A stretch of DNA of 51,853 nucleotides, taken from positions 1 through 51,853 of the forward strand of contig BEHK01000001.1 of assembly GCA_002898775.1 (NCBI GenBank). Direction: 5' to 3'. Positions within the stretch are counted from its first letter, which is position 1. Each line of letters opens with the position of its first letter. The position numbers and the translations under genes were made by a program. This DNA comes from a bacterium HR08 (GTDB lineage: Bacteria; Acidobacteriota; Blastocatellia; HR10). The notes under the pieces are model-generated. The model saw nothing but the letters and a program-made list of their open reading frames with translations, made no database searches and had not been told where the DNA came from. This document shows, one piece after another, positions 1,270 to 25,200 of the stretch.

Positions 1270-2274
1270 TTAGCGGCCTCGCCGTTGCTGTGGCTGCTCC
1301 TCACGGTAGACTTCCGTGTCAGGATAAAAATCGCTCCAGGCGAACCAGAAGAGCGCAATCGAAGGGATGAGAATCCCGCTCTCATCGGTGACGTATCCGG
1401 TCTCCGATTTCTTGTCGAAGTGGATGATGACCTTCTTCCCGTTGATCCGATCCTCGAACCGTTCGGGCTTCTTCTTCAAGATGGCGAACGGATAAGCCTT
1501 CTTCACGCCGTTCACCGAGAGGCCGAGCACGCGCTCCATGGGCCTGAGTTTTACGCCCGACTTCGTCTCTTTGGGCGGCCGCCGGAAGCGCGGCGGCTGG
1601 CCCATCTCCCAGTATTCTTGATAGGGATTCAGGCCGTAATCGCGGCGGAATCCCGTCTCGGGCGAGAGGACGAGCGTCTGAGGATGTTGCGCCCGCCAGT
1701 ACGCCCACGTCGTGTGCAGACTCGGCAGGACCGCGAGCTTCGCTCCTGTCATCGGGCCGGCGATGGCTTCTCCCTTGAGCTGCGACCAGAGACTCTCGGT
1801 CTGGCGGTCGTACATGACCAAGGCCGCCTTGTAGAGTTTGCCCGACACGCCAAAGGTGAATCGCTTGCCGTCAATGATCGGGTCGTACACGACGCCCGAA
1901 CTGCAAAGCGGTCACCAGGTGACGAGAACGGGCCGATCCCCAACCCGATCGTTGACGATCTCGTGCCAGTTGAGGATCTTGATCGGGTAGGCTTTGGCCG
2001 CGCCGGCGAGCGAAACACCTAAGACGCGGTCCCAAGGACGCAGGAATTTTTCGGCCTCGCGAGCCGAGACGAATGTGGGCGAGTCGAGAGCCGGGATGCC
2101 GTCTTTAGGCGGTCCGCCGCCTTGAATGTCTTCGAGTGGAACCGAGCGCTTGGTGACGTCGAACGGGCGCTGACCCGGACCCGCATCGAGATATTGCTTC
2201 TCTTGAACGAACGCGATGAGCCCGCCCGGGCCCATCACGCAACAGAGAGCGGCAATCAGAACCGATGTCTTCAT
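1270..2274 (-). CDS. DUF3179-family exported protein with an in-frame TGA (1912-1914) at the first Cys of the conserved CPxC motif; candidate selenoprotein (UPLC)
   Basis: ORFs 1912-2274 and 1270-1890 are in the same frame (1005 nt in total) and are joined only by a TGA. The read-through gives VLVTW-U-PLCSSGVVYD followed by GVSGKLYKAALVMYDRQTESLWSQ, which is DUF3179-like. It has an N-terminal membrane anchor or signal, and a GGGAGG SD lies 7 nt upstream of the ATG. Confidence 0.7.
1878..1899 (-). promoter_or_regulatory. Candidate SECIS-like hairpin downstream of TGA 1912-1914
   Basis: The RNA ucgggcgucg-ugua-cgacccga forms a bulged 8-bp stem. The apical loop UGUA lies 23-26 nt after the UGA. 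Confidence 0.4.
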
Positions 2275-2382
2275 CGCTGACCTCCCGAGCTGAGGGTGGC
2301 TGAAAACTCTCTCGAATCGGACAAAGCTCCAGCTTTTGGCGGAGAAACCGCTCTGCCGGGCGAGCCTCTTGCCAGCGCCGGC

Positions 2383-2877
2383 TCAATCGGCAGCAGTATC
2401 CTCGGCGAGATCCTCCAACTCGAGCGAGGTCGTGATGGTCACGCAGCCGCCGATGGTTCGAGCGACGGGGCAGTATTCGACATGCCTTTCGTAGGCTCGG
2501 AGAGCGGCCTCGCGCTTGTCCGGTCTCAGGCGCAGGTGATACGTCACGTGAATGCGCCGCACGACGAGCACGCGCCCGTCGGCTTCCACCTCGCCCGTTG
2601 CCTCCGAGGTGAGCCGTCCTTCTCCGGCGGGGATGCCGCGCGCTTCCAGCGCGCCACCGAAAGTCCCGGTGAGTCAGCCCGCCGCCGCGGCCACCAGATA
2701 ATCGAGCGTCGTGGCGTGCGGCTCATGGACGCGCGGATCAACGCCGTAGTGCGCGGCCACCTCGGAGTGAACGCCGAAGAGAACCGGCTGCGATTCCGCC
2801 GGAAGATAAGCCCGCCGGAGCGGTCCCGCGACGCGCTCAATCCGTACCTGCGAACGATAAACCACAGCGCTGTTCAT
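2383..2877 (-). CDS. OsmC/Ohr-family peroxiredoxin-like protein with an in-frame TGA (2674-2676) at the conserved active-site Cys; candidate selenoprotein
   Basis: The read-through gives DYLVAAAAG-U-LTGTFGGALEARG, and the second conserved Cys is present as EYCPVARTI. The two ORF halves share a frame. A GGAGGT SD lies 6 nt before the ATG at 2877. Confidence 0.7.
2638..2654 (-). promoter_or_regulatory. Candidate SECIS-like hairpin downstream of TGA 2674-2676
   Basis: GCGCGC-UGGAA-GCGCGC has a 6-bp stem. The loop lies 26-30 nt after the UGA. Confidence 0.35.
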
Positions 2878-3000
2878 CGGTTGACCTCCACGCATTTATT
2901 TTGGCTGAACACAGAGTCCATTTCAGCGAACCTTTGCCTGAACGCCCGATAGGACGCAGCGGCGATCGCGAAAGACGCATAGGCGCATGGCCATACGCCT

Positions 3001-4065
3001 CTACTTGTTGCGTCCCCTTTGGCGAGCGACCGGGGTGTAAATCTTCGTATCCGGGAAGTAGGCGGCCCAGGCGTACCAGGCTCCCGTGTGAGCCGGCACG
3101 GCTGCAAGTTGCTCGCCGCGCAGTCGCCCCGACTCGGCGCGACCGGCCAAGTTCCACCGGGAGCGCGTGGCCGTATCCACCGCATCGAGCCGTTGGCCCT
3201 GCCGATCCGCGTTTTCGAACCGGAGCACGCGCTTGCCCAGCTTGCGCTCGTAAGCGGCTGCGGTGTTCGCCTGTGGGTCGTAGAAGACGACGATCGGCAC
3301 GCCGCCGACGACATCGTTGATCACGCCGCCCGCCTGCTTGAGCGTGGATAAGGGATAGGCTTTGCGTTCATCGCCCAGGGCCACCGCCAGGACCAGCTCC
3401 ATCCTTCCCAATCGCTCATCCCGATGCGTGAGCGTGCGCTCGAAAACGGGGCTGAGCTGCCGGGGCTGCCAGCGGAAGGGCTTGTAGTGGGCTTGATGCG
3501 GCGTCCGGTTGGAAACGATCAGCGTATCGGGATGGAGCTGTTTCCACTTCGCCCAGCTCGTCTGCACGACCGCGAGTTTGTTGAGTCTTTGGCCTGCGAG
3601 CGGGCCGTCCATCGCCTCACCGCTCGTCAACGACCAGACGCTCCCCGTCTCCCGATCGGCGAACACCAGTTCGGCATTATACAACCCGTGAGGCTTGAAC
3701 GTCAGCCGCTTCCCCTCGTCGGTCGCGGAGTCGAACCCGACTCCCGTCCCGCAGACCGGTCAGTAGACGAGGACGATGGAGCGGCCCCTGACGACGTCGT
3801 TGACCACGTGATGATAGGCCATGATCCGGAGCGGATAGGCCCGGCTCTCTCCCTCAAGTGCAATGCCCATCACCGTCTCGTTGTCATCCAGGTAGCCACT
3901 ATCGGGATGGGTGGCGGGGATGAACTCCGGGTTGGTCAACTCCGGGGGGAATTGGGTGACGACGAAGAGCTTGTCTTTTTGGAACTGAGAAAGCGCGTTC
4001 ATAGGTCCCATCGTCAAGAGAGCGACGAGCGGCACCGTCAGGCGGCCGAATCGTCGAAGCGTCAT
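3001..4065 (-). CDS. DUF3179-family exported protein (paralog) with an in-frame TGA (3760-3762) at the first Cys of CPxC; candidate selenoprotein (UPVC)
   Basis: ORFs 3760-4065 and 3001-3684 are in frame (1065 nt). The read-through gives RSIVLVY-U-PVCGTGVGFD followed by LYNAELVFADRETGSVWS. It has a signal-like N-terminus, and an AAGGAGGTGA SD lies upstream. Confidence 0.7.
3727..3744 (-). promoter_or_regulatory. Candidate SECIS-like hairpin downstream of TGA 3760-3762
   Basis: GGAGUCG-GGUU-CGACUCC is a perfect 7-bp stem. The loop GGUU lies 23-26 nt after the UGA, the same register as in the paralog. Confidence 0.5.
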
Positions 4066-4163
4066 GATCGTTCCTCACCTCCTTGTCGGCCTTTTCCGGC
4101 GAGTCACGAAACGTCAGTCTACCACACCCACATCATCGAGAGGAAAAGCGGAGCCGGGAAGAA

Positions 4164-4703
4164 TCAGGGCTCGGACAATAATCGTTCGACCTCGCGGACG
4201 AAATCCTCCTCGTCCATGAAACCGGCGTGCTCGGCACGGATGCGCCCTTTCCGATCAATGAAAAACGTCATGGGGAGTCCCGTCAATGCGCCGAACTTTT
4301 CCGCGACTTTTTCATCGCCAAGGATGACGGTGTAGGGGAGAGCGTGTTCCCGGATGAACGTTTTGACTTCTCGTTCGTCCTCGTCCAGGGAGATGGCGAT
4401 GATCTCCAGCCCCTTATCTCGATACGTCGCGTGGAGCTTCTTGAAGGTTGGGACTTCCATCACGCAGGGAGGGCACCAGGTCGCCCAAAAATCCACGATG
4501 ACGACTTTGCCCCGCAGGGAGGCCAAACTCACCGGGCGACCGTGAACGTCCACAAGCTCGAGCTCCGGTGCGGGCCGGCCCCTGTCATCAGCATCCTTGT
4601 CGGCCGCAACGGCGAGAGTCGGATCATGAGCGGGGACGCATGACCATGTGCCTCTGTTGCCGACGATGAGCGACATTCCGGCAGCCAGGACGACGGCGAT
4701 CAC
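4164..4703 (-). CDS. TlpA/ResA-like membrane-anchored thiol:disulfide oxidoreductase (thioredoxin fold, WCPPC)
   Basis: It contains GKVVIVDFWATWCPPCVMEVP and LPMTFFIDRKG. The start is uncertain. I chose GTG 4703 (or ATG 4676) because the longer ORF to 5003 would read through palindromic repeat copy a at 4731-4768. Confidence 0.8.
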   Translation of the reverse strand: MIAVVLAAGMSLIVGNRGTWSCVPAHDPTLAVAADKDADDRGRPAPELELVDVHGRPVSLASLRGKVVIVDFWATWCPPCVMEVPTFKKLHATYRDKGLEIIAISLDEDEREVKTFIREHALPYTVILGDEKVAEKFGALTGLPMTFFIDRKGRIRAEHAGFMDEEDFVREVERLLSEP

Positions 4704-4730
4704 CCCAGCAAGTTCCTGCGAGAGGCGAGC

Positions 4731-4768
4731 GGGGTCCCCAAGCGATCTCTGGATCGCTTGGGGTGCCC
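4731..4768. repeat. Palindromic repeat family, copy a
   Basis: The sequence is ggggtCCCCAAGCGATCtctgGATCGCTTGGGGtgccc, with a 12-bp perfect stem. Confidence 0.85.
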
Positions 4769-5048
4769 GAGCGGTTCCTCGTGCTCTTGAGCGTCTCAGC
4801 ACGGCTGTCGAGGGTATCGCGATATGGTCCGAAACAGTCGGCCGTAGGCGCGGCCAGATGGCCTCGCGCTCCGGCGTCGGACAACGCCATCTGGTATTCT
4901 TCGATCGGTCATGATCGTCTCCGGCAGATTGAGAATTCGCATCGAACGGCCAGCTTAGCGCCACTGGACCGCGCCGTTCAGTAGTCGAGATTACACGTCG
5001 CAAAACGTCTCTTGCCGGTGTCCCTTCCGCCTCTGTCGAAAAAAGGGC

Positions 5049-5080
5049 TTGACCTTGCAGTTGGCTGCAAGGTTTAGAAT
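5049..5080 (+). promoter_or_regulatory. MerR/CueR-type promoter-operator
   Basis: In TTGACC-ttgcagttggctgcaaggtt-TAGAAT the spacer is 20 nt. It carries a perfect dyad ACCTTGCAG-N4-CTGCAAGGT that overlaps the -35 element. Confidence 0.7.
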
Positions 5081-5104
5081 GGCAGACGTGAAAGGAGGCG
5101 TGAG

Positions 5105-5554
5105 ATGTCGGGTCGGACGTTTTACATCGGCGAGCTGGCGCGGGCCGTGGGGGTGAAGCCCCAGACGGTTCGCTATTACGAGCGGGAGGGATTGTTGGGA
5201 CGGGCGGCGCGGACGCGTTCGGGCTACCGCCTCTACGATGAGGAGGCGCTCTTGCGGCTGCGCTTCATTCGAGCGGCGCAAGCGCTGGGGCTGTCGCTGG
5301 CGGAGATTCGAGAGCTTGTGGTGCTCAGCCGCGAGGGACGGTCCCCGTGCGCGCGAGTCCGAACCTTGCTCCGAGAAAAGCTTCGGGCGCTGGATCAGAA
5401 GATCGCCGAGCTGCGAGCCTTTCGCCGGGAGCTGGCCGCTCGACTCGCTCAATTGGACGCGATGCCCGATCAAGCAGACTCCTCGCCCTACGTCTGCTCG
5501 CTCATCATGACGCTGGCCCGGCGTCACCGTCCAGATCACGGAAAGGAGGGATGA
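5105..5554 (+). CDS. MerR-family heavy-metal-responsive transcriptional regulator
   Basis: The N-terminal HTH reads YIGELARAVGVKPQTVRYYEREGLL. It has a coiled-coil dimerisation helix and Cys residues at GRSPCARV and PYVCSL. An AGGAGG SD lies upstream. Confidence 0.85.
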   Translation: MSGRTFYIGELARAVGVKPQTVRYYEREGLLGRAARTRSGYRLYDEEALLRLRFIRAAQALGLSLAEIRELVVLSREGRSPCARVRTLLREKLRALDQKIAELRAFRRELAARLAQLDAMPDQADSSPYVCSLIMTLARRHRPDHGKEG

Positions 5555-5557
5555 CCT

Positions 5558-5731
5558 ATGCGACGAACCCGTCGGATCGTGCTGTTGCTGGCCTTGAGCG
5601 TGGCGATCGGATCGGGAGCACTCTATGGGTTCAAGGTGTCGTCCGAGAGCCCGGCGAGCTGCCCGGGTCGGATCGTCTGCCCGCTCACGGGCAAGATCAT
5701 CTGTCGCGACGCCTGTCCGCTGAAGAAGTGA
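5558..5731 (+). CDS. 57-aa membrane-anchored Cys-rich peptide (not in ORF track, under 60 aa)
   Basis: The peptide is MRRTRRIVLLLALSVAIGSGALYGFKVSSESPASCPGRIVCPLTGKIICRDACPLKK. A GGAGGG SD lies 7 nt upstream, and the start is 4 nt after the regulator stop. Confidence 0.5.
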   Translation: MRRTRRIVLLLALSVAIGSGALYGFKVSSESPASCPGRIVCPLTGKIICRDACPLKK

Positions 5732-5749
5732 CGGCGTCGGTCACCGCAG

Positions 5750-5773
5750 GGGAGCGCCTGCGAGGGCGCTCCC
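5750..5773 (+). other. GC-rich stem-loop between the small peptide gene and the next gene
   Basis: GGGAGCGCC-tgcgag-GGCGCTCCC has a 9-bp stem and no U-tract. It may be an attenuator or a processing site. Confidence 0.3.
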
Positions 5774-5813
5774 TCGTGGAGGGAAGGAGGCTGAGATAGA
5801 GAAGCGGCGCGCT

Positions 5814-6101
5814 ATGGTTCGCCGGTGGGGGCCAATCTACAGTGGGGTGGCGGTGCTGGCATCGCTCCCCTGGTGCTGACTGGCGCCGACGGTGTTCGCC
5901 CTGCTCGGGACAGCAGGGACCGTCGCCGCGCACATGATCTTCGTCCGCGGGAATGCGATCTTCGAGGGCCTCACCGTGTACGCTCTGCTGCGCGCGCATT
6001 ATCTGGTGAACGTGAGGGGGCAGGGAGGGCGAACGGCTCGCTTCACGGTGTGGGCGGGGACACTCGTCTCGGCCTTGCTTTGGAGCTTTCGCCTCTTTTG
6101 A
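5814..6101 (+). CDS. MerT/MerF-like small membrane protein with an in-frame TGA (5877-5879) at the second Cys of the TM1 Cys-Cys pair; candidate selenoprotein (C-U)
   Basis: The read-through VLASLPWC-U-LAPTVFALLGTAGTV aligns with ASLCCTGPLVAALLGLGS of the MerT-like proteins at 8310 and 10791. ORF 5892-6101 is in frame with ATG 5814. The product has about three hydrophobic helices. The SD is weak. Confidence 0.55.
5899..5918 (+). promoter_or_regulatory. Candidate SECIS-like hairpin downstream of TGA 5877-5879
   Basis: CCCUGC-ucgggaca-GCAGGG has a 6-7 bp stem. The loop begins 26 nt after the UGA. Confidence 0.35.
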
Positions 6102-6115
6102 CCGGGAACCGTCAC

Positions 6116-7126
6116 ATGCCCTATCGGCCGGAAACTTCGGAATTCGTAGCGGCCTTTGCCTCGACGGCAGAGCCTCAGGAAAAGCCAGCAGGAAAGCCTG
6201 CGCCATTCCGGAGAGCGCGGTCCTGGAGCGCGGCGCTTTTGTTCCTCGGCGGCGTGGGGCTTTCATCGGCTGAACTGCGCGCCCAGACCATCGTGGCTCC
6301 GAGCGCGCGCACGCTCTTCAATCGGGCGACGCTTGTGCGCTTGTCGGTCGAAGTCCGGCATTCGTCCCTTCGAACAGACGGAAGATCAACCGCTGTCACT
6401 CAGTATGTCCCGGTGCTGGCCGTCGTCTATGGATTTCGCCCGAACTGGACGATCATCGTGGCTCAGCCTTACGCGGTCGTAGATGTGACCAACCGGATGG
6501 GGGATGAAACCCGACGAGAGAGCTTGAACGGCCTGGCTGATACGCGGGTGTTTATTCAATACGATGGGCTTTACAGGCGCAACACGCCCGGCGGGCTGAC
6601 GCGGCTATCGGCGGTCTTTGGTGTGCAGGTCCCCACCGGTGCCGATCGGTTCTCAACAGGTGCGGTGGCTTATACTGGCGGAATGATCTTCCAGAAAGCG
6701 GTGAGGTTGAAGCATGTCTTCACCGGAGATTTCGAATATACTCGTGCGACCGAGAACCGTCGGGGCCTCTCGATGGGCGACCGGATCCGGTTTGACGCCG
6801 CTCTGTCGCGCTTTGTTATTTCCCAGGATAAAGCTCCGCCTGGCGCGAGTTGGCCGCGCAAGGCCTTCGATCGCATCTTTCGTTACGGAGCGTACTTCGT
6901 CCTGGAACTCAACGGCACTTGGCAGGCTCGCGCCCGCACTCGCGGAACTCCGATTCCCGACAGCGGCGGGACGATGCTCTCGGTGTCGCCGGGAATCCAG
7001 TGGTTTTTGAGCAACGCGTTTTTGGTCGAGATTTCCGCCCCGATTCCAGTCGTCAAGGCGCTCAGCGGGAAGCAGCCCAAACCCAACTCGACGTTTCTCT
7101 TGGGATTCCGGATTCTGTTTTTCTGA
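6116..7126 (+). CDS. Outer-membrane beta-barrel protein (MetA/transporter-like), signal peptide
   Basis: Starting at ATG 6116 gives a signal-like SWSAALLFLGGVGLSSAELRAQ. The sequence has an alternating beta-strand pattern and ends in LLGFRILFF with a terminal Phe. Confidence 0.5.
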   Translation: MPYRPETSEFVAAFASTAEPQEKPAGKPAPFRRARSWSAALLFLGGVGLSSAELRAQTIVAPSARTLFNRATLVRLSVEVRHSSLRTDGRSTAVTQYVPVLAVVYGFRPNWTIIVAQPYAVVDVTNRMGDETRRESLNGLADTRVFIQYDGLYRRNTPGGLTRLSAVFGVQVPTGADRFSTGAVAYTGGMIFQKAVRLKHVFTGDFEYTRATENRRGLSMGDRIRFDAALSRFVISQDKAPPGASWPRKAFDRIFRYGAYFVLELNGTWQARARTRGTPIPDSGGTMLSVSPGIQWFLSNAFLVEISAPIPVVKALSGKQPKPNSTFLLGFRILFF

Positions 7127-7169
7127 GTATGAGACGACGAAACATTCAGCCTCTTTGGAGGGTTTGAAT

Positions 7170-7733
7170 ATGAGAAAGCAAGGCATGTGGCTTCTGTTTG
7201 TATTTTGCCTTCTTACCGCCGTGCCGGTGTCGGCCCAGGTCGAGAAGGCGAGGGTCAAAATTGACGGCATGATCTGAGGTCTCTGAGCGCGAGGGGCTCA
7301 GAGAGCCCTCCAACGCCTGGATGGCGTTGATCGTGTCGAGGTGAATTTGGTGAAAGGGGAAGCCGAAGTATTTTCCAAGCCCGAGAAGTCTTTCGATCCT
7401 GTCCTGATCCCTAAGGCTCTTCGGGAGGCCGGCTTCACGGCGACCGAGGTCGTGGTGACGGCTGAGGGAACTCTGATCAAGGGGGAGGAAGCCTTCACAC
7501 TGGATGTTCCGGGACTGGCGCACCCGTTTGTGCTGGCCGGCGGAGCACAGGCCGACACGCTCAGAAAACGGACAGACCTCGTGGGGAAGAAAATCCGCGT
7601 GACCGGGAAGCTTCATCCCAGCCATGCGGATCATCCGCCCGGCCTTACGGTCGAGAGCTTTGAGCAGTTGCGCGAGGATGGTCTCGGCCTCGGCGGGAAA
7701 ATGGTGTTGCGCCTGGTGGGGCGGAGAATGTGA
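7170..7733 (+). CDS. Secreted HMA (MerP/CopZ-fold) domain protein whose GMxCxxC metal site is encoded as GM-I-TGA-G-L-TGA; candidate U-x-x-U selenoprotein
   Basis: The signal peptide ends VSA/Q. Then comes VKIDGMI-U-GL-U-ARGAQRALQRLDGVDRVEVNLVKGEAEVF...ALREAGF, a canonical HMA fold. The TGAs are at 7275-7277 and 7284-7286, and everything is in frame with ORF 7341-7733. A GGAGG SD lies 8 nt upstream. Confidence 0.7.
7280..7310 (+). promoter_or_regulatory. Two overlapping, mutually exclusive hairpins at and after the paired TGAs (candidate SECIS)
   Basis: Stem A is UCUCUGAGC-gcgaggg-GCUCAGAGA (9 bp, and it includes the second UGA). Stem B is GAGGG(G)CUC-aga-GAGCCCUC (8 bp with a bulge). Confidence 0.4.
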
Positions 7734-7778
7734 CCTAAGGGCGACCAAATCAAAGTGTCGTCGAGCAAAAATTAGAGC

Positions 7779-7810: not shown

Positions 7811-7817
7811 TCCGATT

Positions 7818-8285: not shown

Positions 8286-8309
8286 ACGGATGTCGTGGAA
8301 GGAGGGACG

Positions 8310-9790: not shown

Positions 9791-9799
9791 GGTGGGGTC

Positions 9800-18021: not shown

Positions 18022-18753
18022 ATGAAGAAGATCAGCCTCGATCACCTTCGCCCTCCGGATCGGGCGCGACTTGACGCGCTCGTCGGGCAAGTCGAACAGG
18101 CGGTGCCGATTCTTCGAGAGCGCAGTGTGCCCTTGAGCCCACAAGAGCGGCAAGTCTGGCAGGCCGTTTTACATAGGTTCGCTCAGTTCGGGCGGGCACC
18201 GACGGTCGGGGAGTTGTCCAGCGGCCGAACTGGCCTCTCACCAGAAGTCACTCACGCATGCTTGGAGCGATTAGCTGCGAAAGATGTCATCGTGCTCGAT
18301 GAGCGGTCAGGCGAAATTCTCGGCGCGTATCCCTTCTCTGCCCGTCCGACGCGCCATCGGGTGAGCTTTGACGCTCAGACCGTCTATGCCATGTGCGCCG
18401 TGGATGCTCTCGGCATCGCCGTAATGCTTGGCCGAGAGGTTCGAATCGAGTCGCGCTGTCCACTGTGCGGCGGAGCCATCAACGTGAAGGCAGACGCTGA
18501 AGGAATAACCCACTTGGAGCCGGCGTCGGCCGTGGTTTGGTTGGGTGAACCGAGGGCACGAGCGACTTGCTGCGCCGATTGGCTTTGCCCGGAGATCAAC
18601 TTCTTCTGTTCGGATGAACATGTGAATCAGTGGCGGCTGGGGCAAGCCGAAGCGAGCGGTTATACACTCATGCCTCTTGAGGCGCTCTACCTGGCCAGTC
18701 GCTTCTTTGCCGGTTTGCTTCAGCGGCATCCTGAAGAAGGAGGGAAGATATGA
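18022..18753 (+). CDS. merB: Organomercurial lyase MerB
   Basis: YAMCAVDALGIAVMLG matches YAWCALDTLIFPALIG, RCPLCGGAINV matches HCAATGAPVSL, and TCCADW...NFFCS matches FCCHVHFFAS of R831b MerB. Confidence 0.85.
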   Translation: MKKISLDHLRPPDRARLDALVGQVEQAVPILRERSVPLSPQERQVWQAVLHRFAQFGRAPTVGELSSGRTGLSPEVTHACLERLAAKDVIVLDERSGEILGAYPFSARPTRHRVSFDAQTVYAMCAVDALGIAVMLGREVRIESRCPLCGGAINVKADAEGITHLEPASAVVWLGEPRARATCCADWLCPEINFFCSDEHVNQWRLGQAEASGYTLMPLEALYLASRFFAGLLQRHPEEGGKI

Positions 18754-19262
18754 AAAGCGTCTCCTTGGTCATGCTCGGCATCCTCTGCATGCCCGTGTGC
18801 ACTTTGGCACAAACCTCGCCGCTCCACCTCAGGGTGGTCGGCGATGTGGAAGCGAACAAGGCACTCAAGATCCTTTGACCGAGCACGGTGAGCGGCATGC
18901 TCCAACGCCAGGCTGGCGTTGAAAAAGCGACCTACTCCCGTGACGGTGTAGTCGAAATTGAAGCGAAGACCGAAGCTCCGTTTGAAGTGAAGCGAATCCT
19001 TTCGGTGCTCAAAGACGAAATGGGTTTTGATCCGATTCGGGAGATCGAGGTCACGGTCGTTGGCCAGCTCAGCTCAACTTCGGCAGGATGGATCGTGAAA
19101 CCGAAAAATAGCGTCGAGGCGTTCGCCCTGGTCGAGAATGAAGAACTCCAGGGGCTCAAGGCAAGAGAGAACATCGAACACCAAGAGATCAGGCTGACAG
19201 GGAGGCTTCAGAAGCGAGCCGATGGTACGCTCGCCCTCAAAGTCGAGGCGGTGGAGAGGTGA
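18750..19262 (+). CDS. Secreted HMA-like protein, paralog of 7170-7733, with a single in-frame TGA (18876-18878) at the second metal-ligand position; candidate selenoprotein
   Basis: After a signal peptide it reads LRVVGDVEANKALKIL-U-PSTVSGMLQRQAGVEKATY. The U lies 13 residues before the conserved GV, exactly as the second U of the paralog does. The C-terminal half resembles the paralog. The ATG overlaps the merB stop (ATATGA). Confidence 0.6.
18903..18921 (+). promoter_or_regulatory. Candidate SECIS-like hairpin downstream of TGA 18876-18878
   Basis: CAACGCC-aggcu-GGCGUUG is a perfect 7-bp stem. The loop lies 32-36 nt after the UGA. Confidence 0.4.
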
Positions 19263-19266
19263 ACAG

Positions 19267-19500
19267 ATGAATTCTTGGAAAATCATCATTCCGGCTTTCA
19301 TCGCCTTGGCCATCTGCTGTCTCGGCCCGCGGCTCATCGCGCTCATCGGAGCCGGGCTGCTCTGGTTGGCAGCGCCGCTGGGAGAGTTCGGTTGGTTGAT
19401 TGTCCCGGGAGCGATTCTCCTGCTCGCGTTGGCGTGGCGAGAACGCCGAAGCCGACGGGCATGCTGTCGCGTGAAAAGTTCGAATCCAGATGAACCGTAG
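19267..19500 (+). CDS. merF: MerF-like two-helix mercury transporter
   Basis: The 77-aa product has a CC pair in TM1 (ALAICCLGP) and a C-terminal CC (RRACCRV), as MerF does. Confidence 0.6.
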   Translation: MNSWKIIIPAFIALAICCLGPRLIALIGAGLLWLAAPLGEFGWLIVPGAILLLALAWRERRSRRACCRVKSSNPDEP

Positions 19501-19511
19501 AAGCACCAACG

Positions 19512-20351
19512 ATGTTCGAGTATCTCACCGAGTACTGGTTTGCTTTCCCGGTCGTGGCGCTGGGCTGCACGATGACGATCATGGGTGGCGTCGGGGGCAA
19601 TGTCGTCTGCGGGCCGTTTTTCATGCTGGTGCTGAAATTGTCACCGGAAGCGGCAATTGGAACGGCGTTGGTCACCGAAGTCTTCAGTATGTCGAGCGGC
19701 GTCATCGGCTACGGACGGCGCAAGCTGATAGACTACAAACTGGCATTGTTTTTAGCCCTGGGAGCTGTGCCAGCGGCCATCGTCGGCTCATTGCTTTCTG
19801 TGCATGCGCCGGGGACTTTCCTGAAGATCATCTTCGGCGGAGCCATCATGATCATTGCTTGGCTGCTGTATCGCTCGCCGAACGAGACCGTCCTTGCCGC
19901 TCAAGAGGCGATCGTGAATCCTGGAGTGCCCGGCGTGCGCACGCGCATTGATCGTCAGGGCCGCGTCTCCTCGTACCGGGTGTGTCGGCGAGGACAACTC
20001 TTGGGCATCAGCGTGCTCGCCGGATTAGGGTCGGGGCTTGTCGCCATCGGTGGCGGCGAACTGAACACGCCGGCGATGGTGCTCCGTTGCAAAATTCCGG
20101 TTCGCATTGCGGCCGCGACGGCTGTGTTCACCATGGCCCTGACCGTCATGGCAGGTGCGAGCACGCACGTCCTTGTTGGTCGGCCCGTTTGGAACCCTGC
20201 TCTCTGGACCATCCCCGGAGCCATCCTCGGTGGGCAATTGGGGAGCTATCTGGCCAGCCGCATCGAATCGGAGGCGCTGAAGCGGTGGCTTTCGCTTCTC
20301 TTCGTGCTGGTCGGTATGGTGATGATCGCGGACGCCGTATTTCTGAAGTAG
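19512..20351 (+). CDS. TauE/SafE (TSUP, DUF81) family permease
   Basis: It is polytopic and contains MGGVGGNVVCGPFFMLVL and GGGELNTPAMV. Confidence 0.75.
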   Translation: MFEYLTEYWFAFPVVALGCTMTIMGGVGGNVVCGPFFMLVLKLSPEAAIGTALVTEVFSMSSGVIGYGRRKLIDYKLALFLALGAVPAAIVGSLLSVHAPGTFLKIIFGGAIMIIAWLLYRSPNETVLAAQEAIVNPGVPGVRTRIDRQGRVSSYRVCRRGQLLGISVLAGLGSGLVAIGGGELNTPAMVLRCKIPVRIAAATAVFTMALTVMAGASTHVLVGRPVWNPALWTIPGAILGGQLGSYLASRIESEALKRWLSLLFVLVGMVMIADAVFLK

Positions 20352-20393
20352 GAGCGACCCGCCGGGTCGCCCCTGCCCGGAGATCGTCAGCCG

Positions 20394-21083
20394 ATGGAAA
20401 AAATCGTCTCGCTTTTCGAGCACTACGGATACGTGGTCGTCTTCCTCGGCGTCTTCCTGGATACGGTCGGCCTCCCCTTTCCGGGCGAGATCGCTTTGTT
20501 CATCGCCGGAGCCCTCAGCTTCAGGGGGAGACTGAACCTTCTCGTGGTCATTTTCCTCGGAACGGTTGCCGCGATACTTGGTGACAGCCTGATGTTTCTC
20601 ATCGGTCGGATGGTGACCGAAGCCCGCGAGCAGCGCACGGTGGAACTCTATTGCCGGTGGACCGCGTGCACATTAGGATCAAGCTATTGTTATCAGCGGG
20701 CGCGCCGCTCTGTGGAACGATTTCGCGCTCGCGTGCTCCTGCTGGCCAAGTTTATTCTCGGCGCGCGACAATTCATCCCGCCGATAGCCGGGATGGCGCG
20801 GATGCGGCCGCTCCAGTTCATCGGCTGGGATGCCCTTGGCGTTCTCCTCTGGGTGGCAGTAGTGTCGTCCCTTGGGTATTGGTCGCGGAGTCATCTCGAA
20901 TCCGTCCTGGCCGGTTTCGAGCGGTTGAAATCCATCTTCTCGATAGCCATGGCCTCGGGTGTGATGGGGTACTTTTTCTGGAAGATTTATCGGCTTCAGC
21001 GGTTCGGCCCGCCGAAGGCCGATCAGAGGGTGATCGAAGCCGGTCGGCAGCATCCTTCGGATCTCAAGGAGTCGGCACGATGA
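20394..21083 (+). CDS. DedA-family membrane protein
   Basis: It contains YGYVVVFLGVFLDTVGLPFPGEIALFIAG. Confidence 0.8.
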   Translation: MEKIVSLFEHYGYVVVFLGVFLDTVGLPFPGEIALFIAGALSFRGRLNLLVVIFLGTVAAILGDSLMFLIGRMVTEAREQRTVELYCRWTACTLGSSYCYQRARRSVERFRARVLLLAKFILGARQFIPPIAGMARMRPLQFIGWDALGVLLWVAVVSSLGYWSRSHLESVLAGFERLKSIFSIAMASGVMGYFFWKIYRLQRFGPPKADQRVIEAGRQHPSDLKESAR

Positions 21084-23482
21084 ACGCAAAAGACGGCTGC
21101 GCCTTCGGCCAACCGGGAATTCCGCCTCGATGGACCTCAAGCTCGAAGGAGGGAGTGGGAACAGCTTACAGCACGTCCAGTCGCGTCTGGTTTACCATCT
21201 CACATGGCATCCTCAACGAGGTCTATTATCCGACGATTGACCGCCCGCAGATCAGAGACCTCGAGTTCCTCATCAGCGATGGTGAGACCTTCTTTCACGA
21301 AGAGAAGCGCCACCTCGTCCACCAGATCGAGTACATCGAGCGTCATACGCTGGGCTATCGCATCACGAGCACCGACCCGCAGGGGCGATATCGGATCATC
21401 AAAGAGATCATCGCGGACCCTCATGCCCCTTGTGTGCTCATACACGCCAGGATCGAAACGGCCGCGGAGTGGTCGGATCGCTTGCAGGTTTATGCGTTGC
21501 TTGCGCCACATCTGGAAGTGGGAGGTTGGGGCAACTCGGCTCGAAAGTTTCGCGTTGCGGGAAGCGATGTCCTCGTAGCTTGGAAAGGCCGGACCTATCT
21601 GGCTATGGGAACGAACGTAGGTTTCGCTAAGACATCCTGTGGATACGTGGGCGCAAGCGACGGCTGGCAAGATCTAAACGACAACTTTCAGATGGACTGG
21701 CAGTTCGAACGGGCTGAGGACGGGAATGTTGCCGTCATCGGACAGATCGCCCTGACCAAAGATAAGGAATTCACCTTAGGATTGGCCTTTGGAGACGGAC
21801 TGCACGCAGCGGTGACAACTCTGATTCAATCGTTAAGTGTGCCTTTTGCCGAACAGAGGGAGAAATATATCGAGCAATGGCATCGCGTCTGCTGCGATAT
21901 CCTTGATTTGGATGGGTACTCCTGCGACGGTGGGCGCCTGTATCGTATCAGCCACAGCTTGTTGCTGGCGCACGAGGATAAGACGTTCGCCGGGGCTCTG
22001 ATCGCCTCGGCGAGCATCCCGTGGGGAGACGCGAAGGGTGATGAGGATCTCGGCGGCTACCATCTGGTATGGACTCGTGACATGGTTCACAGTGCCACGG
22101 GGCTTTTAGCCTGTGGCGACGCGGTGACGCCACGTCGGGCGCTCATCTATCTGGCCTGCTCGCAGCGCGCCGACGGAGGCTTTCCGCAAAACTTCTGGCT
22201 CGATGGAACGCCGTACTGGAACGGCATCCAGCTTGACGAGGTGGCCTTCCCCGTGATGTTGGCCTGGCGGTTGTGGAAGGCCGATGCGCTGGGTGAGTTC
22301 GACCCTTATCCGATGGTCCGGGCAGCCGCCGCGTACTTGATTCGCCAAGGTCCGGCGACGCAGCAAGAGCGCTGGGAGGAAAACAGCGGATATTCGCCCT
22401 CGACGCTCGCCGCGACCATTGCCGCGCTGATCTGCGCCGCAGACTTCGCCCGCTCGCGCGATCACCGGGAAGCGGCTCTTTTCCTCGAAGAGTATGCTGA
22501 CTTCTTGGAATCACACGTCGAGCGCTGGACGGTGACGACACAAGGGAGTTTGGTACAAGGGATCTCAAGGCATTACATTCGTATTCTTCCCACGGACATT
22601 AATGACCCTGCGCCGGAGGAGGACCCGAATCGCGGCGTGCTTCAGATTCGCAACAGACCTCCGGGCGAAAAGTGGGAGTTTCCGGCAAAAGATATCGTTG
22701 ATGCGGGCTTCTTGGAATTAGTCCGTTACGGCATACGTAAACCGGGAGACCCGCTCATCGAAGACTCGCTCGAAGTTGTGGACGCTGTGCTCAAGGTGGA
22801 TACGCCCTTTGGTCCCTGCTGGCGCCGCTACAACTACGATGGATACGGGACGCGTCCGGACGGCGGCCCGTTTGAGGGATGGGGAAAGGGGCGAGCGTGG
22901 CCGCTTCTTACCGGTGAGCGAGGTCACTATGAGCTTGCTGCTGGCCGCGATGTGAGACCGTATATCCGGGCGATGGAGTGCTTCGCTTCCAGAGGGGGCA
23001 TGCTTCCTGAGCAAGTGTGGGACGAGCCGGACCGGCCTGATCTGGGCCTGTACCTGGGCCGGCCGGCAGGTTCGGCAATGCCTCTGATGTGGGCGCATGC
23101 GGAATACATCAAGCTGCTCAGATCGGCCGCCGACGGCCAGGTGTTCGATCTGATTCCAGTTGTGGCCGAGCGTTATCTTGCTGGGCGTGGACGCAAGGAC
23201 CTTGAGGTGTGGAAACCAAACCGCCAAGTGCGGCGAGTCGTGCCAGGGCAGGTGTTGCGCGTTCAAGCGCCGGCGCCCTTTCGGCTCCGGTGGACGGCGA
23301 ACGAATGGCAGAGTTTCCAGGATACGATGTCGCTCTCCAGCAGCCTGGGCATCTTCTTCGTGGATATCCCTGTGGCTGAAGGACAGCGTGCGCCCATCCG
23401 ATTCGCATTCTTCTGGACCGACAGGGAGCAATGGGAAGACCAAGAGTACCGAGTTGAAGTCGAAGAGAAAGCCAGGTCATGA
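21080..23482 (+). CDS. GH15 glucoamylase / glucodextranase-like glycoside hydrolase
   Basis: It contains PRWTSSSKEGVGTAYS, ILNEVYYPTIDRPQIRDLEF, YHLVWTRDMV and ERWEENSGYSPSTLA. ATG 21080 overlaps the DedA stop (ATGA). The track ORF from 20651 is a spurious N-terminal extension. Confidence 0.85.
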   Translation: MNAKDGCAFGQPGIPPRWTSSSKEGVGTAYSTSSRVWFTISHGILNEVYYPTIDRPQIRDLEFLISDGETFFHEEKRHLVHQIEYIERHTLGYRITSTDPQGRYRIIKEIIADPHAPCVLIHARIETAAEWSDRLQVYALLAPHLEVGGWGNSARKFRVAGSDVLVAWKGRTYLAMGTNVGFAKTSCGYVGASDGWQDLNDNFQMDWQFERAEDGNVAVIGQIALTKDKEFTLGLAFGDGLHAAVTTLIQSLSVPFAEQREKYIEQWHRVCCDILDLDGYSCDGGRLYRISHSLLLAHEDKTFAGALIASASIPWGDAKGDEDLGGYHLVWTRDMVHSATGLLACGDAVTPRRALIYLACSQRADGGFPQNFWLDGTPYWNGIQLDEVAFPVMLAWRLWKADALGEFDPYPMVRAAAAYLIRQGPATQQERWEENSGYSPSTLAATIAALICAADFARSRDHREAALFLEEYADFLESHVERWTVTTQGSLVQGISRHYIRILPTDINDPAPEEDPNRGVLQIRNRPPGEKWEFPAKDIVDAGFLELVRYGIRKPGDPLIEDSLEVVDAVLKVDTPFGPCWRRYNYDGYGTRPDGGPFEGWGKGRAWPLLTGERGHYELAAGRDVRPYIRAMECFASRGGMLPEQVWDEPDRPDLGLYLGRPAGSAMPLMWAHAEYIKLLRSAADGQVFDLIPVVAERYLAGRGRKDLEVWKPNRQVRRVVPGQVLRVQAPAPFRLRWTANEWQSFQDTMSLSSSLGIFFVDIPVAEGQRAPIRFAFFWTDREQWEDQEYRVEVEEKARS

Positions 23483-23535
23483 CTGTGTCACCGGTGTATG
23501 GCGCTCACTCAATCCTCGATAAGGAGGTACAGACG

Positions 23536-25200
23536 ATGACTGAGCGAACGCATGTCACTTTGCGCATTGAAGGGATGACCTGCGACGGTTGCGCCCGGCA
23601 TGTCACTGAGGCGCTCAAGAACGTCGCCGGGGTCATCGAAGTTCACGTGCCCGGCTGGCGGTCGGGACAGGCCACAGTCATCGCCGAAGCCGGCATTAGC
23701 GACGAGGCATTGATTCGTGCCGTCCGCGACGCGGGCTATCGCGCCCTGGTGCGCGAACGGCGACCGCTGGAAGGCGAGCGTCGAGCGCCGAAGCCAGAAA
23801 GGGCCGATTATGATCTCATGATCATCGGCGGCGGATCGGCGGGGTTTGCGGCTGCGATCAAAGGCGCAGAGTTGGGCGCGAACGTGGCCATTGTCGAGGG
23901 CGGCACCATCGGCGGCACGTGCGTCAACATCGGCTGCGTGCCTTCGAAGACGCTGATCAAGGCAGCCGAACTCTGCTACCGCTCCGCCTATCCCAAATTC
24001 GAAGGACTCACCGCTTGTCCGCCGCCGTCGGATTGGCGGCGAGTCGTCGAACAAAAAGATGAATTGGTGGCGGCCCTGCGTCAGGGCAAGTACATCAACG
24101 TGGTGGATGTGTATCCCAATATCACGCTCATTCGCGGCTGGGCCAGGCTCACGGGCGGTCGCCAAGTCTCGGTCAACGGCACGACCTATACGCCGGGGAA
24201 GATCATCATTGCAACCGGCTCGCGTCCGTGGGCGCCGCCGATTCCGGGGTTGAAAGAAGCGGGGTACTTGGACAGCACCGATGCTTTGAGTCTTCCGGCC
24301 TTGCCGCAATCGCTCCTGATCATCGGAGCCGGAGCCATCGGGCTTGAACTAGGGCAGCTCTTCAGCCGCTTCGGTGTGCGCGTGATGATCCTCGAGGCTG
24401 GCCCTCACGTCGCGGGGATGGAGGAACCGGAGATCGGAGAGGCGCTCACGCGGTACCTCGAAGAGGAGAAGATGCGCATCTGCACCGGGGTGACCATCCA
24501 TCGCGTCGAGCGGGTAGGGAACGAGTACCACGTCATGGCGACCATCAATGGACGCGAGGAGATCTGCGCGGCGGAGCAAGTGATGGTGGCGACCGGACGA
24601 CGGCCCAATACCGGGGGATTGGGATTGGAAGAGGCCGGAGTGCAGGTCGGCACGCGCGGGGAGATCCTGGTCAACGAGTATCTGCAAACGACCAATCCCG
24701 ACATCTACGCGGCGGGCGATTGTATCGGCGATCCGATGTATGTTTACGTGGCCGCTTATGCCGGTGGAATGGCGGCGGAGAATGCCCTGACCGGAGCGGG
24801 ACGGATTTACGATCTTTCAGCTCTGCCGCATGTCATCTTCACCGACCCGCAGGTGGCGAGCGTGGGCCTGACCGAAGCGCAGGCGCGGGAGAAAGGATTG
24901 AAGGTCAAAACGTCGGTCTTGCATCTGAAAGACGTGCCGCGGGCGCTGGCGGCTCGCGATACGCGGGGGCTCATCAAGCTCGTCGCCGAAGAGAGTACAG
25001 GCCGACTCCTTGGGGCACACGTTCTAGCCGATGAAGCGGGCGAGGTGATTCAAGAGGCAACGCTGGCCATTCGCTTCGGGCTGACGATCAAAGACATTGT
25101 CGAGACGTTCCACCCTTACTTGACGATGGTTGAAGGGCTGAAGTTGGCGGCGCTCGCGTTCGAACGAGACGTGGCCAAGCTCTCCTGCTGCGCCACCTGA
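23536..25200 (+). CDS. merA: Mercuric reductase MerA with N-terminal HMA domain
   Basis: It contains GMTCDGCA, the FAD motif IIGGGSAGFAAA, the redox site GGTCVNIGCVPSK and a C-terminal KLSCCAT. An AAGGAGG SD lies 8 nt before ATG 23536. Confidence 0.95.
   Translation: MTERTHVTLRIEGMTCDGCARHVTEALKNVAGVIEVHVPGWRSGQATVIAEAGISDEALIRAVRDAGYRALVRERRPLEGERRAPKPERADYDLMIIGGGSAGFAAAIKGAELGANVAIVEGGTIGGTCVNIGCVPSKTLIKAAELCYRSAYPKFEGLTACPPPSDWRRVVEQKDELVAALRQGKYINVVDVYPNITLIRGWARLTGGRQVSVNGTTYTPGKIIIATGSRPWAPPIPGLKEAGYLDSTDALSLPALPQSLLIIGAGAIGLELGQLFSRFGVRVMILEAGPHVAGMEEPEIGEALTRYLEEEKMRICTGVTIHRVERVGNEYHVMATINGREEICAAEQVMVATGRRPNTGGLGLEEAGVQVGTRGEILVNEYLQTTNPDIYAAGDCIGDPMYVYVAAYAGGMAAENALTGAGRIYDLSALPHVIFTDPQVASVGLTEAQAREKGLKVKTSVLHLKDVPRALAARDTRGLIKLVAEESTGRLLGAHVLADEAGEVIQEATLAIRFGLTIKDIVETFHPYLTMVEGLKLAALAFERDVAKLSCCAT

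Follow-up and report, generated by a model that had tools for sequence, protein, structure and literature searches.

Seven genes in a soft-metal island of a thermophilic hot-spring acidobacterium (Blastocatellia order HR10, GAL08 lineage) contain in-frame TGA codons, eight in all, which are best read as selenocysteine (Sec) codons (with a probability of roughly 0.82–0.85). They are recoded sense codons at metal-ligand or redox Cys positions, most probably encoding Sec. This is the best reading of the seven-gene set because the TGAs are conserved, are naturally exchanged for Cys codons, lie in intact frames and are followed by hairpins, while TGA is still the usual stop codon. The analysis covered a window of 51,853 nucleotides (the whole stretch of DNA), and its features are listed in Table 1; related loci carry L numbers.

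Table 1. Features of the island, with in-frame TGAs written as U in their protein context.
Feature	Position	Strand	In-frame TGA and context	3′ hairpin	Match or basis
DUF3179a, exported	1270–2274	−	1912–1914, VTW-U-PLC	1878–1901, bulged, loop GUGUA	Pfam DUF3179, E 4e-88
OsmC-like peroxidase	2383–2895	−	2674–2676, AAAG-U-LTG	2638–2654, GCGCGCU-GGA-AGCGCGC	Pfam OsmC, E 8e-13, 49 bits (cut-off 27.5)
DUF3179b, exported	3001–4065	−	3760–3762, LVY-U-PVC	3727–3744, GGAGUCG-GGUU-CGACUCC	Pfam DUF3179, E 1e-73
TlpA/redoxin-like membrane-anchored thiol:disulfide oxidoreductase, Cys form (WCPPC)	4164–4673	−			AhpC-TSA/Redoxin, E 3e-29
MerR-type promoter	5049–5080	+			TTGACC, 20 nt spacer, TAGAAT, read from sequence
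merR1, MerR-family regulator	5105–5554	+			MerR_1, MerR-DNA-bind; genuine TGA stop
PWCU membrane protein, small, 2–3 TM, distantly MerT-like	5814–6101	+	5877–5879, LPWC-U-LAP	5899–5918, CCCUGCU-CGGGAC-AGCAGGG	merT_RC607, 23.6 bits
Outer-membrane beta-barrel (OMP), Phenol_MetA_deg family	6116–7126	+			PF13557, E 4.6e-8
HMA1: signal peptide, MerP-like HMA domain, C-terminal beta domain	7170–7733	+	7275–7277 and 7284–7286, GMI-U-GL-U	A, 7293–7309; B, 7311–7329	HMA, E 1.6e-11
merR2, Hg-type Cys triad (RTC...AEC...KSCPVIE)	7818–8285	+			Sequence read; start codon uncertain
MerT-HMA-HMA fusion transporter, all-Cys (LCC; GMTCGGC; GMTCAGC)	8319–9116	+			NF033556 MerTP_fusion, 184.9 bits (cut-off 180)
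zf-CopZ/BFD-type Fe-S metallochaperone, CC form	9263–9790	+			NF047645, 144 bits (cut-off 100)
merR3	10345–10794	+
MerT-HMA fusion, Cys form	10791–11669	+
CMD/AhpD-like protein	11766–12131	+
DUF302	12199–12675	+
Multihaem cytochrome c/b561 fusion	12759–14162	+
ExtKL-like multihaem cytochrome c	14169–15566	+	15102–15104, GHSIPNG-U-PPR	15123–15141, GUGCUCAG-GUU-CUGGGCAC	NF040886, 137.5 bits (cut-off 250)
MerB-like organomercurial lyase, Cys form	18022–18753	+			86 bits, below NCBIfam cut-offs; precomputed Pfam MerB match
HMA2, HMA1 paralogue	18750–19262	+	18876–18878, KIL-U-PST	18903–18921, CAACGCCA-GGC-UGGCGUUG	E 2e-8 against HMA1
MerA, N-terminal HMA, all-Cys (GMTCDGC, CVNIGC, C-terminal CC)	23479–25200	+			TIGR02053, 582.8 bits (cut-off 454)

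Reading the sequence placed all eight TGAs in frame, as the original prediction had claimed, and no TAA or TAG was found anywhere in the seven reading frames. The prediction had counted the TGA of the cytochrome gene without describing it, and had placed TGA on a conserved Cys in six genes. Alignments to homologues bore this out, with a conserved Cys column at seven of the eight sites; the remaining site is that of the ExtKL-like cytochrome. TGA is also the ordinary stop of 25 of the window's 32 confident genes (among them merR1, DUF302, glucodextranase and merA, where the C-terminus LSCCAT is followed by a genuine TGA stop). The genetic code is therefore not reassigned, which agrees with the earlier claim.

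Three of the recoded genes belong to a minus-strand operon headed by the TlpA-like gene, the start of which is uncertain (the ORF reaches 5003). The L106 orthologue of this gene is fused to a DsbD_TM domain. In DUF3179a the TGA replaces the first Cys of CPLC; the DUF3179 column is TGT or TGC in 78/78 scorable homologues outside the lineage, and TGA in HR10. The TGA of DUF3179a also occurs in L002, L106 and L108, and that of DUF3179b in L002, L106 and L107. Alignment of the OsmC-like protein to PDB 1UKK put its TGA at the peroxidatic Cys of Thermus thermophilus OsmC, and the resolving Cys is retained (EYCPVAR). Both this TGA and its hairpin are unchanged in L002 and L106.

On the plus strand, the MerR-type promoter has a spacer spanned by the dyad ACCTTGCAG-N4-CTGCAAGGT and, judged by MerR/CueR promoter architecture, would function as such. 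The operator of MerR1 is CueR-like, and the regulator itself contains just two Cys residues. In the PWCU protein TGA replaces the second Cys of PWCC, a motif present in all four full-length Cys homologues (P0003–P0006). The family is small (~95 aa) and rare, with 6 representative clusters among 1.84 billion proteins; its codon is TGA in L002, L101 and L104–L107 and TGC in L099. The gene always adjoins merR and/or an OMP gene, its conserved partner; in L101 and L107 a homologue of this partner lies directly 3′ of the PWCU gene. HMA1 has TGA at both ligand positions of GMxCxxC, as do L107 and L101, while HR10 has TGT and TGA. The lone TGA of HMA2 aligns with the second ligand of HMA1, the first position being Lys; it is present in 7 loci, and no Cys form was found. 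At the cytochrome column TGA is shared by HR10, by Desulfocapsa and by three loci from deltaproteobacteria, while L108/L109 have TGT. This is the only Cys form; most homologues have Ala, Val, Thr, Asp or Leu there.

At least six related assemblies share these TGAs, among them that of Bacterium HR10 (78–85% nucleotide identity). Carriers comprise the NCBI HR10 record, JGI 3300005855 and 3300010938, three other NCBI MAGs and Logan contigs; among the related loci compared, TGA is kept in HR10, L101 and L104–L109. Three sites show natural exchange of Sec and Cys: the first HMA1 site (TGA/TGT), the PWCU family (TGA/TGC) and the cytochrome (TGA/TGT). Past the TGAs the frames are intact, with no additional stops or frameshifts, and dN/dS was 0.25, 0.08, 0.14, 0.63 and 0.25 (0.25 across 210 codons of DUF3179a, 0.08 for the OsmC-like gene and 0.14 across 253 codons of DUF3179b). 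The region 3′ of each TGA is thus under purifying selection.

A hairpin lies 3′ of every TGA (8/8 sites) and is conserved in relatives. The prediction of such hairpins stood, although its loop distance of 12–32 nt did not: with the U of UGA as reference, loop starts fall between +24 and +36. By minimum free energy alone, the sites were barely separated from 400 in-frame control positions, being only modestly unusual in GC-rich DNA. A SECIS-like criterion (a perfect stem of at least 6 bp, and a loop of 3–8 nt that begins between +20 and +40 and carries a G at one of its first three positions) selected 7/8 TGA sites compared to 7.9% of 10,793 control codons and 5.1% of codons for Cys, although it was defined post hoc, with the hairpins already seen. 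The hairpins keep a fixed distance from the TGA and are invariant where flanks vary, as for DUF3179b. Compensatory pair changes occur in the hairpins of DUF3179a (U-A to U.G to C-G), HMA1 hairpin A (U-A to C-G) and HMA hairpin B; the HMA2 hairpin has A-U changed to G-C in L082. In the cytochrome family, differing hairpin sequences occupy the same place. An Rfam search returned no family matches, and amino-acid conservation could be the source of part of the hairpin conservation.

Do the TGAs have to encode Sec? Were they real stops, leaving split or truncated products or decaying pseudogenes, the public gene calls would be explained: each gene is split, including DUF3179 and OsmC calls in L106–L108, and all 16 HMA2 clusters are C-terminal fragments. 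However, seven TGAs fall exactly on an active-site Cys, so that the function of both halves would be lost, and the downstream parts often have no start codon or ribosome-binding context yet stay in frame with dN/dS of 0.08–0.63. The interrupting codon is always TGA, never TAA or TAG, and the sites are common to at least six assemblies and distant deltaproteobacterial cytochromes, which makes this explanation very unlikely. For an error in sequencing or assembly, or a reassignment of UGA to a standard amino acid throughout the lineage, the only argument is that in-frame TGAs are present at all. This explanation is effectively refuted, since identical TGAs recur in independent assemblies of different projects, and TGA still ends most genes, where conserved C-termini (MerA's, for example) precede it.

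It is also improbable, if less so than real stops, that the UGAs are recoded by a SECIS/SelB-type route that wholly or partly inserts Cys, by a selC*-type tRNA-Cys(UCA) or, under selenium shortage, by near-cognate Cys-tRNA. The swaps at three sites indicate that Cys is functionally tolerated; Desulfobacterales and Syntrophobacterales are known to have selC* tRNA-Cys(UCA) with dedicated SelB* and CysRS*, and Acidobacteria to have unusual allo-tRNAs (PMC7609411). Against this, selC* is unreported for Acidobacteria, no selC*-type tRNA was found in the window or the related loci examined, and TGA has been kept across genomes at 65–85% identity even though TGY is one mutation away. Against the Sec reading, no selA, selB, selD or tRNA-Sec gene was found within the window or the related loci examined. 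Indirect support for the Sec machinery comes from the literature: the Sec trait is known in the phylum, and GAL08 species, of a clade placed together with HR10, are scored 'selenocysteine: yes' (Supplementary Table S6 of PMC8787282).

The original prediction held that mer-type proteins using Sec were undescribed. This was overstated: a 2022 preprint mentions CU-motif MerT-family selenoproteins, and NCBIfam has several models. DUF3179, OsmC-like, MerT-like, UxxU metal-binding and ExtKL selenoproteins are already catalogued, and the best or only NCBIfam matches of island proteins are (seleno)protein models, although none of the proteins reaches a selenoprotein cut-off. DUF3179 selenoproteins (PF11376, UxxC/T; first listed from an Olavius symbiont metagenome) share the family and Sec at the first Cys of CPxC, whereas here two paralogues share one acidobacterial operon with a TlpA-like reductase and a Sec-OsmC. 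The OsmC-like selenoprotein NF041052 (UxxT) shares the fold and Sec at the N-terminal catalytic Cys, but the island protein scores 16 bits vs 95, has the motif U-L-T-G and is nearer classical two-Cys OsmC.

Known MerT-family selenoproteins (the C/SxxU 'putative mercuric transport protein' and a small CU group; Haft 2022) likewise have C-U for the Cys pair of the first TM helix and an adjoining merR, but the PWCU protein has no Pfam MerT match and scores 23.6 bits vs 130 for merT_RC607. Nearest to HMA1 are NF041115 ('putative mercuric reductase' HMA domain) and NF045683 (MerT/CopZ fusion heavy-metal transport selenoprotein). NF041115 (UxxU), its best match (49 bits vs cut-off 95), shares the HMA fold with Sec at both GMxCxxC ligands, whereas HMA1 has a signal peptide and the extra beta domain. 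HMA2 matches no curated model. ExtKL NF040886, the cytochrome's sole NCBIfam match (E 4.5e-40, below cut-off), has TGA at the common column GHxxPxG-U-P, including in deltaproteobacterial members. The CopZ-like protein scores 90 bits vs 190 against NF045877; its family's sister model is a CU selenoprotein. For the SAO locus, known from anaerobes that include Clostridioides difficile, a role of Sec as heavy-metal ligand has been put forward (Haft 2022 preprint). That locus likewise groups a MerB relative and metal transporters with several selenoproteins and CU motifs, but its families differ (ABC transporter SaoABPX, Sec in MerB-like SaoL) and its hosts are Firmicutes; in the island, both MerB and MerA have Cys, and Sec lies in exported or membrane proteins.

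The mer-gene setting proposed for the island is present in its parts: three merR genes, a MerR-type promoter, MerT-HMA fusions, merB and merA. The Sec-rich core, however, exists without the merA/merB segment (~16.5–25.8 kb), an insertion relative to HR10 that is missing from the syntenic HR10 region. The mercury assignment is therefore weaker than it looks, given also that MerR1 is CueR-like with two Cys and that MerR3 is missing two Hg ligands. The canonical mer operon (Tn21/Tn501) has the order merR-T-P-(C/F)-A-(B)-D. The island resembles it in merR, the MerT-HMA fusions, merB-like, a merA above the equivalog cut-off and a promoter with a 20 bp spacer, but its genes, scattered across 24 kb, are interspersed with unrelated genes and three regulators, merA/merB is inserted, and there are extra stations with Sec.

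We propose that the UGAs would be read by the standard bacterial SelB/tRNA-Sec/SECIS route, with the coding-region hairpin 20–45 nt past each UGA as putative SECIS element, and that the products would be seven selenoproteins of a chromosomal island under MerR-type regulators. In a putative metal relay, selenolate may take the place of thiolate at the stations in the membrane and outside the cytoplasm (exported MerP-like HMA1 with U-x-x-U, HMA2 with a single U, and inner-membrane PWC-U with an outer-membrane channel), with the cytoplasmic stations (MerT-HMA fusions, CopZ-like, MerB, MerA) presumably staying Cys. The divergent operon is probably a periplasmic reductive and peroxide-defence branch, in which the TlpA-like reductase would serve with two U-x-x-C DUF3179 proteins and OsmC with a peroxidatic Sec; the ExtKL-like cytochrome would supply the eighth Sec. 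Sec has a lower pKa than Cys, binds soft metals such as Hg(II) more tightly and exchanges them faster. Metal capture and hand-over would therefore be faster at high temperature. The clustering of seven selenoprotein genes in one MerR-controlled acidobacterial island appears to be new, as do two forms missed by curated models, PWCU and the single-Sec HMA protein.

When the in-frame TGAs were read through, the paired ORF fragments of seven genes joined into complete proteins, with eight TGAs and no TAA or TAG, as the original prediction had it. That prediction counted seven genes correctly and left the seventh undescribed; it encodes a multihaem cytochrome. The others encode two DUF3179 proteins, an OsmC-like protein, two exported MerP-like proteins with HMA domains (HMA1 and HMA2) and a small MerT-like membrane protein with candidate selenocysteine (Sec, U) at the second Cys of PWCC (PWCU). 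Pfam gave strong scores for DUF3179 (twice), OsmC and HMA, and no match for PWCU or HMA2. Judging by their N-termini, five of the seven proteins start with a signal or anchor sequence; another is integral to the membrane.

Recoded genes and other features of the window, with the codons found at the TGA sites in related loci (L numbers; L002 and L082 are from Bacterium HR10, L106 is a JGI contig)
Feature	Position	Strand	Sequence or content	TGA in	Cys codon in
DUF3179a	1270-2274	-	VTW-U-PLC	L002, L106, L108	
OsmC-like	2383-2895	-	AAAG-U-LTG	L002, L106	
DUF3179b	3001-4065	-	LVY-U-PVC	L002, L106, L107	
PWCU (95 aa)	5814-6101	+	LPWC-U-LAP	L002, L101, L104, L105, L106 (twice), L107	L099 (TGC)
HMA1	7170-7733	+	GMI-U-GL-U	L107, L101 (both sites)	HR10 (TGT, first site)
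Multihaem cytochrome (ExtKL-like)	14169-15566	+	GHSIPNG-U-PPR; TGA at 15102-15104	HR10	L108/L109 (TGT)
HMA2	18750-19262	+	KIL-U-PST	7/7 loci examined	none found
merR1 operator region	5049-5554				
MerT/MerP fusion	8319-9116				
zf-CopZ/BFD protein	9263-9790		starts MSECCQ		
merR3	10345-10794	+			
Region with no convincing gene	16416-18020				
merB/merA segment	~16500-25800				
Radical-SAM, patatin-like lipase and TonB-dependent receptor genes	25736-27067, 33833-37290				
Pentose-phosphate cluster	28774-33577		gnd, zwf, opcA-like, pgl		

The nearest public genome is that of Bacterium HR10 (HRbin10, BEHM01000007.1), which is syntenic with positions 1184-7771 at 78-85% nucleotide identity and with 10650-16496 at 75-78%. 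HR10 is an order of Blastocatellia (Acidobacteriota) in GTDB, grouped with the hot-spring clade GAL08 (PMC8787282). A TGA is kept in HR10 in all seven genes; at HMA1 it is the second site that is kept, and the first is TGT. More islands with the same split genes were found in two JGI metagenomes, three NCBI MAGs and Logan contigs (L104-L109), together with a distant contig (L101). The 185 kb contig from JGI 3300005855 carries, at 5173-19927, a merR, PWCU, merR, merT-HMA module in two copies, and it has a TlpA-like reductase joined to a DsbD_TM domain, a fusion that suggests a supply of electrons from the cytoplasm. The radical-SAM, patatin-like lipase and TonB-dependent receptor genes accompany the island in several relatives (L106-L109) at 74-84% identity. 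For HMA2, all 16 homologous database clusters are C-terminal fragments of 121-131 aa, and no unsplit form is on record among them. Public records enter every HMA2 homologue as a truncated fragment, and likewise this lineage's genes for DUF3179, OsmC and PWCU.

The TGAs had been predicted to replace conserved Cys residues, and alignment to Cys-containing homologues bore this out for DUF3179, OsmC and PWCU, as did the TGT of HR10 for the first HMA1 site. In a scan of the best 80 of at most 600 candidate stretches, the DUF3179 column could be scored in 79 of the 80 related loci: every one of the 78 loci of other lineages had TGT or TGC there, and the closest relative had TGA. The second Cys of the DUF3179 CPLC motif, downstream of the U column, was retained in 77 of those 78. 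In the OsmC-like protein the U falls on the residue that is the peroxidatic Cys in Thermus thermophilus OsmC (PDB 1UKK); its resolving Cys is kept. Homologues of PWCU are rare: when 1.84 billion representatives were searched exhaustively with the 73 residues that follow the TGA, just six clusters came back, and a sequence search of the PDB with the protein returned no match. Because all four full-length homologues carry S-x-PWCC, the U is read as a replacement of the second Cys. Within the window, the first transmembrane helix of the MerT-HMA fusion offers a further counterpart: the C-U pair, and only that pair, aligns with its CC (E 8e-4). HMA1 and HMA2 are paralogous (E 2e-8), with the single U of HMA2 aligned to the second U of HMA1 and a Lys at the first ligand position. 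The cytochrome is unusual as a Sec site with mostly non-Cys counterparts. Among L083-L098, its column is Ala, Val, Thr, Asp or Leu in most of the relatives without Sec; only L108/L109, of the same lineage and 36% identical, holds a Cys codon (TGT). A TGA stands at exactly that column in four deltaproteobacterial loci; as L092 and L097 do not differ, these amount to three distinct sequences.

A hairpin follows each UGA on its 3′ side, with the loop starting at +24 to +36, and at seven of the eight sites it is SECIS-like, a stem-loop close behind the UGA that carries G in its apical loop. By a structural criterion set after the hairpins had been seen, seven of the eight sites scored; the corresponding rates were 7.9% for 10,793 in-frame control codons and 5.1% for Cys codons. 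The minimum free energy of the whole segment and the energy of the best hairpin discriminated poorly against 400 in-frame controls; free energy alone is weak evidence in DNA of 60% GC. No Rfam family was matched in the window at gathering thresholds. Across orthologues, the hairpins of DUF3179b, OsmC and PWCU are invariant within variable flanks, while others show compensatory changes: U-A to U.G to C-G in DUF3179a, U-A to C-G in HMA1 hairpin A, and A-U to G-C in HMA hairpin B. Hairpin B is common to HMA1 and HMA2, lies at +28 to +46 from the homologous UGA, and is made partly of the rare codons CAA and GUU. In HR10 (L002 ~4740-4775, equivalent to window 7275-7310), where the first HMA1 site is UGU, hairpin A lacks two pairs and hairpin B is intact; this single case is suggestive of one hairpin per UGA. 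Members of the cytochrome family, folded sequence by sequence rather than with RNAalifold, have hairpins of unrelated sequence at the same position, offset by a few nucleotides.

What other than recoding could place TGAs within these frames? Under sequencing error they would be artefacts, and under pseudogene decay the marks of lost function. The same TGAs recur in HR10 and the related islands, and comparison of the window with HR10 shows neither frameshifts nor additional stops past them. The dN/dS values after the TGA are 0.25, 0.08, 0.14, 0.63 and 0.25, a mark of purifying selection, and those of the upstream parts are similar. Taken together, this shows that the parts downstream of the TGAs are translated. 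Because the TGAs are conserved, the downstream frames intact and dN/dS low (0.08-0.63), both sequencing error and pseudogene decay were ruled out. A reassigned code, in which UGA would no longer signal termination, had been thought unlikely from the start, and is ruled out because TGA is the normal terminator here: it ends 25 of the 32 confident genes in the window, including MerA at its conserved ...LSCCAT end.

ARAGORN detected no tRNA in the window, the HR10 locus or the related loci, and tblastn with E. coli SelA, SelB and SelD found no selA, selB or selD in the window, the HR10 locus or the related loci. Indirect backing for a Sec machinery comes from the literature: the Acidobacteria include Sec-decoding members (PMC1794560), and all three GAL08 species are entered as 'selenocysteine: yes' in Supplementary Table S6 of PMC8787282. 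On the evidence as a whole, the TGAs are very probably recoded as Sec (a probability of roughly 0.85).

Several of the proteins fall within known selenoprotein kinds. Reviews list DUF3179 (UxxC/T), OsmC-like, mercuric transport protein (MerT, putative), UxxU metal-binding and ExtKL among selenoprotein families (PMC9312934, PMC13188914), and a 2022 preprint by Haft noted MerT-family selenoproteins with a CU motif and argued for heavy-metal binding by CU motifs. The two DUF3179 proteins scored 296 and 249 bits against a gathering score of 27 (PF11376), with U first in CPxC. The OsmC-like protein matched Pfam OsmC with U on the peroxidatic Cys; its match to the OsmC-related (seleno)protein model NF041052 was weak and secondary (16 bits, below the cut-off of 95). 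HMA1 had as its top NCBIfam match the UxxU metal-binding (seleno)protein model NF041115, below cut-off (49.3 bits versus 95), and shares with it the UxxU motif and Pfam HMA; it works like the NF041115 family but is not a curated member. HMA2 did not match NF041115. The sole family match of the cytochrome was ExtKL (NF040886), below cut-off at 137.5 bits versus 250, with the TGA column common to its deltaproteobacterial relatives. PWCU scored 23.6 bits, below the cut-off of 130 for merT_RC607, and matched neither Pfam MerT (PF02411) nor the MerT/CopZ selenoprotein model NF045683, nor any other MerT model above cut-off (NF033560 included). Neither PWCU nor HMA2 matched an NCBIfam selenoprotein model. 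The zf-CopZ/BFD protein of the island belongs to NF047645 ('CopZ_Nterm_CC'), the Cys form whose sister model NF045877 is a CU selenoprotein, and is from another family that alternates between Sec and Cys.

The island is laid out around a single MerR-type promoter, upstream of merR1 (TTGACC, 20 nt spacer, TAGAAT; dyad ACCTTGCAG-N4-CTGCAAGGT), the only one found. A minus-strand operon of a TlpA-like reductase, DUF3179b, OsmC and DUF3179a diverges from it, and on the other side it would drive merR1, the PWCU gene, an outer-membrane barrel and HMA1. Further downstream lie merR2, a MerT-HMA-HMA fusion, a CopZ-like Fe-S protein, merR3, a MerT-HMA fusion, CMD, DUF302, two cytochromes and a Crp-family regulator. 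The next segment holds merB, HMA2, TauE, DedA, a GH15 glucodextranase (an odd passenger) and merA. MerA scored as an equivalog (TIGR02053, 582.8 bits versus 454.45), and MerT/MerP transport is represented by the fusion at 8319-9116 (NF033556 MerTP_fusion, 184.9 bits versus 180). MerB reached ~86 bits versus equivalog cut-offs of 193-200, its recorded match being the Pfam MerB domain only. The cytoplasmic Hg enzymes are all-Cys.

A triad-like Cys pattern occurs in only one of the three MerR-family genes, merR2. MerR1 has two Cys (SPCARV, YVCSL); its operator, TTGACC TTGCAG TTGG CTGCAA GGT TTAGAAT, resembles the layout of a CueR-type copA promoter. MerR3 has one, keeping the first (ETC), with Thr and Arg in place of the two C-terminal Hg-ligand Cys of MerR2 (KATGERA...KARPVIEDF versus KAECERA...KSCPVIEDF); it may sense a signal other than Hg(II) or be degenerate. 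The segment with merB and merA (16.5-25.8 kb) is missing between the same flanks in HR10, where window 15672-16496 and 25797-28463 correspond to L082 7432-8295 and 9371-12013, and it looks like an inserted module. The stretch with no convincing gene has ORFs with low GC3 and Arg-rich translations, and translated similarity to HR10 in its first ~260 nt only; it may be the decayed region that the original prediction called pseudogenes. Because the merB/merA segment is absent from HR10, the merR1 operator looks CueR-like and the Hg-type triad is in merR2 only, the mercury label calls for caution. The pentose-phosphate cluster, read from translations, is ordinary and shows the island to be chromosomal. 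In other lineages (Nitrospira, Nitrosomonas, Telluria and others; L013, L017, L019, L027, L035, L041, L058), Cys-type DUF3179 genes adjoin merA-like reductases, with full merR-merT-merA sets in two of those loci; this hints that DUF3179 may be tied more generally to mercury or disulfide-reductase loci.

How might the seven proteins work together? We infer a metal relay with selenolate at its outer stations, accompanied by a periplasmic reductive and peroxide-defence branch. It is possible, if doubtful, that the whole is a coherent lineage-specific selenium relay for Hg(II) or other soft metals, with selenolate at all extracytoplasmic and membrane ligand stations and thiolate in the cytoplasm. 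On that reading the selenolate stations would be HMA1 and HMA2, both exported, the inner-membrane protein PWC-U, coupled to a channel in the outer membrane, and the two DUF3179 proteins, which TlpA would keep reduced; PWCU and HMA2, the latter obligately Sec-containing and with a single ligand, would be selenoprotein forms outside current curated models.

The idea of a previously unknown kind of system was not supported: the recoding mechanism and most of the families are known, since reviews, the preprint and NCBIfam models already cover them. The seven genes belong to known selenoprotein kinds as new members, and their arrangement is notable. Full-text literature searches returned no description of seven such genes clustered in a MerR-regulated island, of the island's conservation in the HR10 lineage, of the PWCU family, or of an obligately Sec-containing, single-ligand HMA2. 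Understanding of selenocysteine decoding is unchanged, and for five of the families the assignment had been published before. With seven genes and eight Sec codons in ~18 kb, the island would rank among the densest natural clusters of metal-handling selenoprotein genes, in a poorly known group of thermophilic acidobacteria. It also exposes an annotation problem, in that Sec genes are filed publicly as truncated fragments. The natural Sec/Cys swaps among close relatives, in the MerP-like, MerT-like and cytochrome proteins, provide ready pairs in which to test what selenium contributes to the binding and transfer of soft metals.
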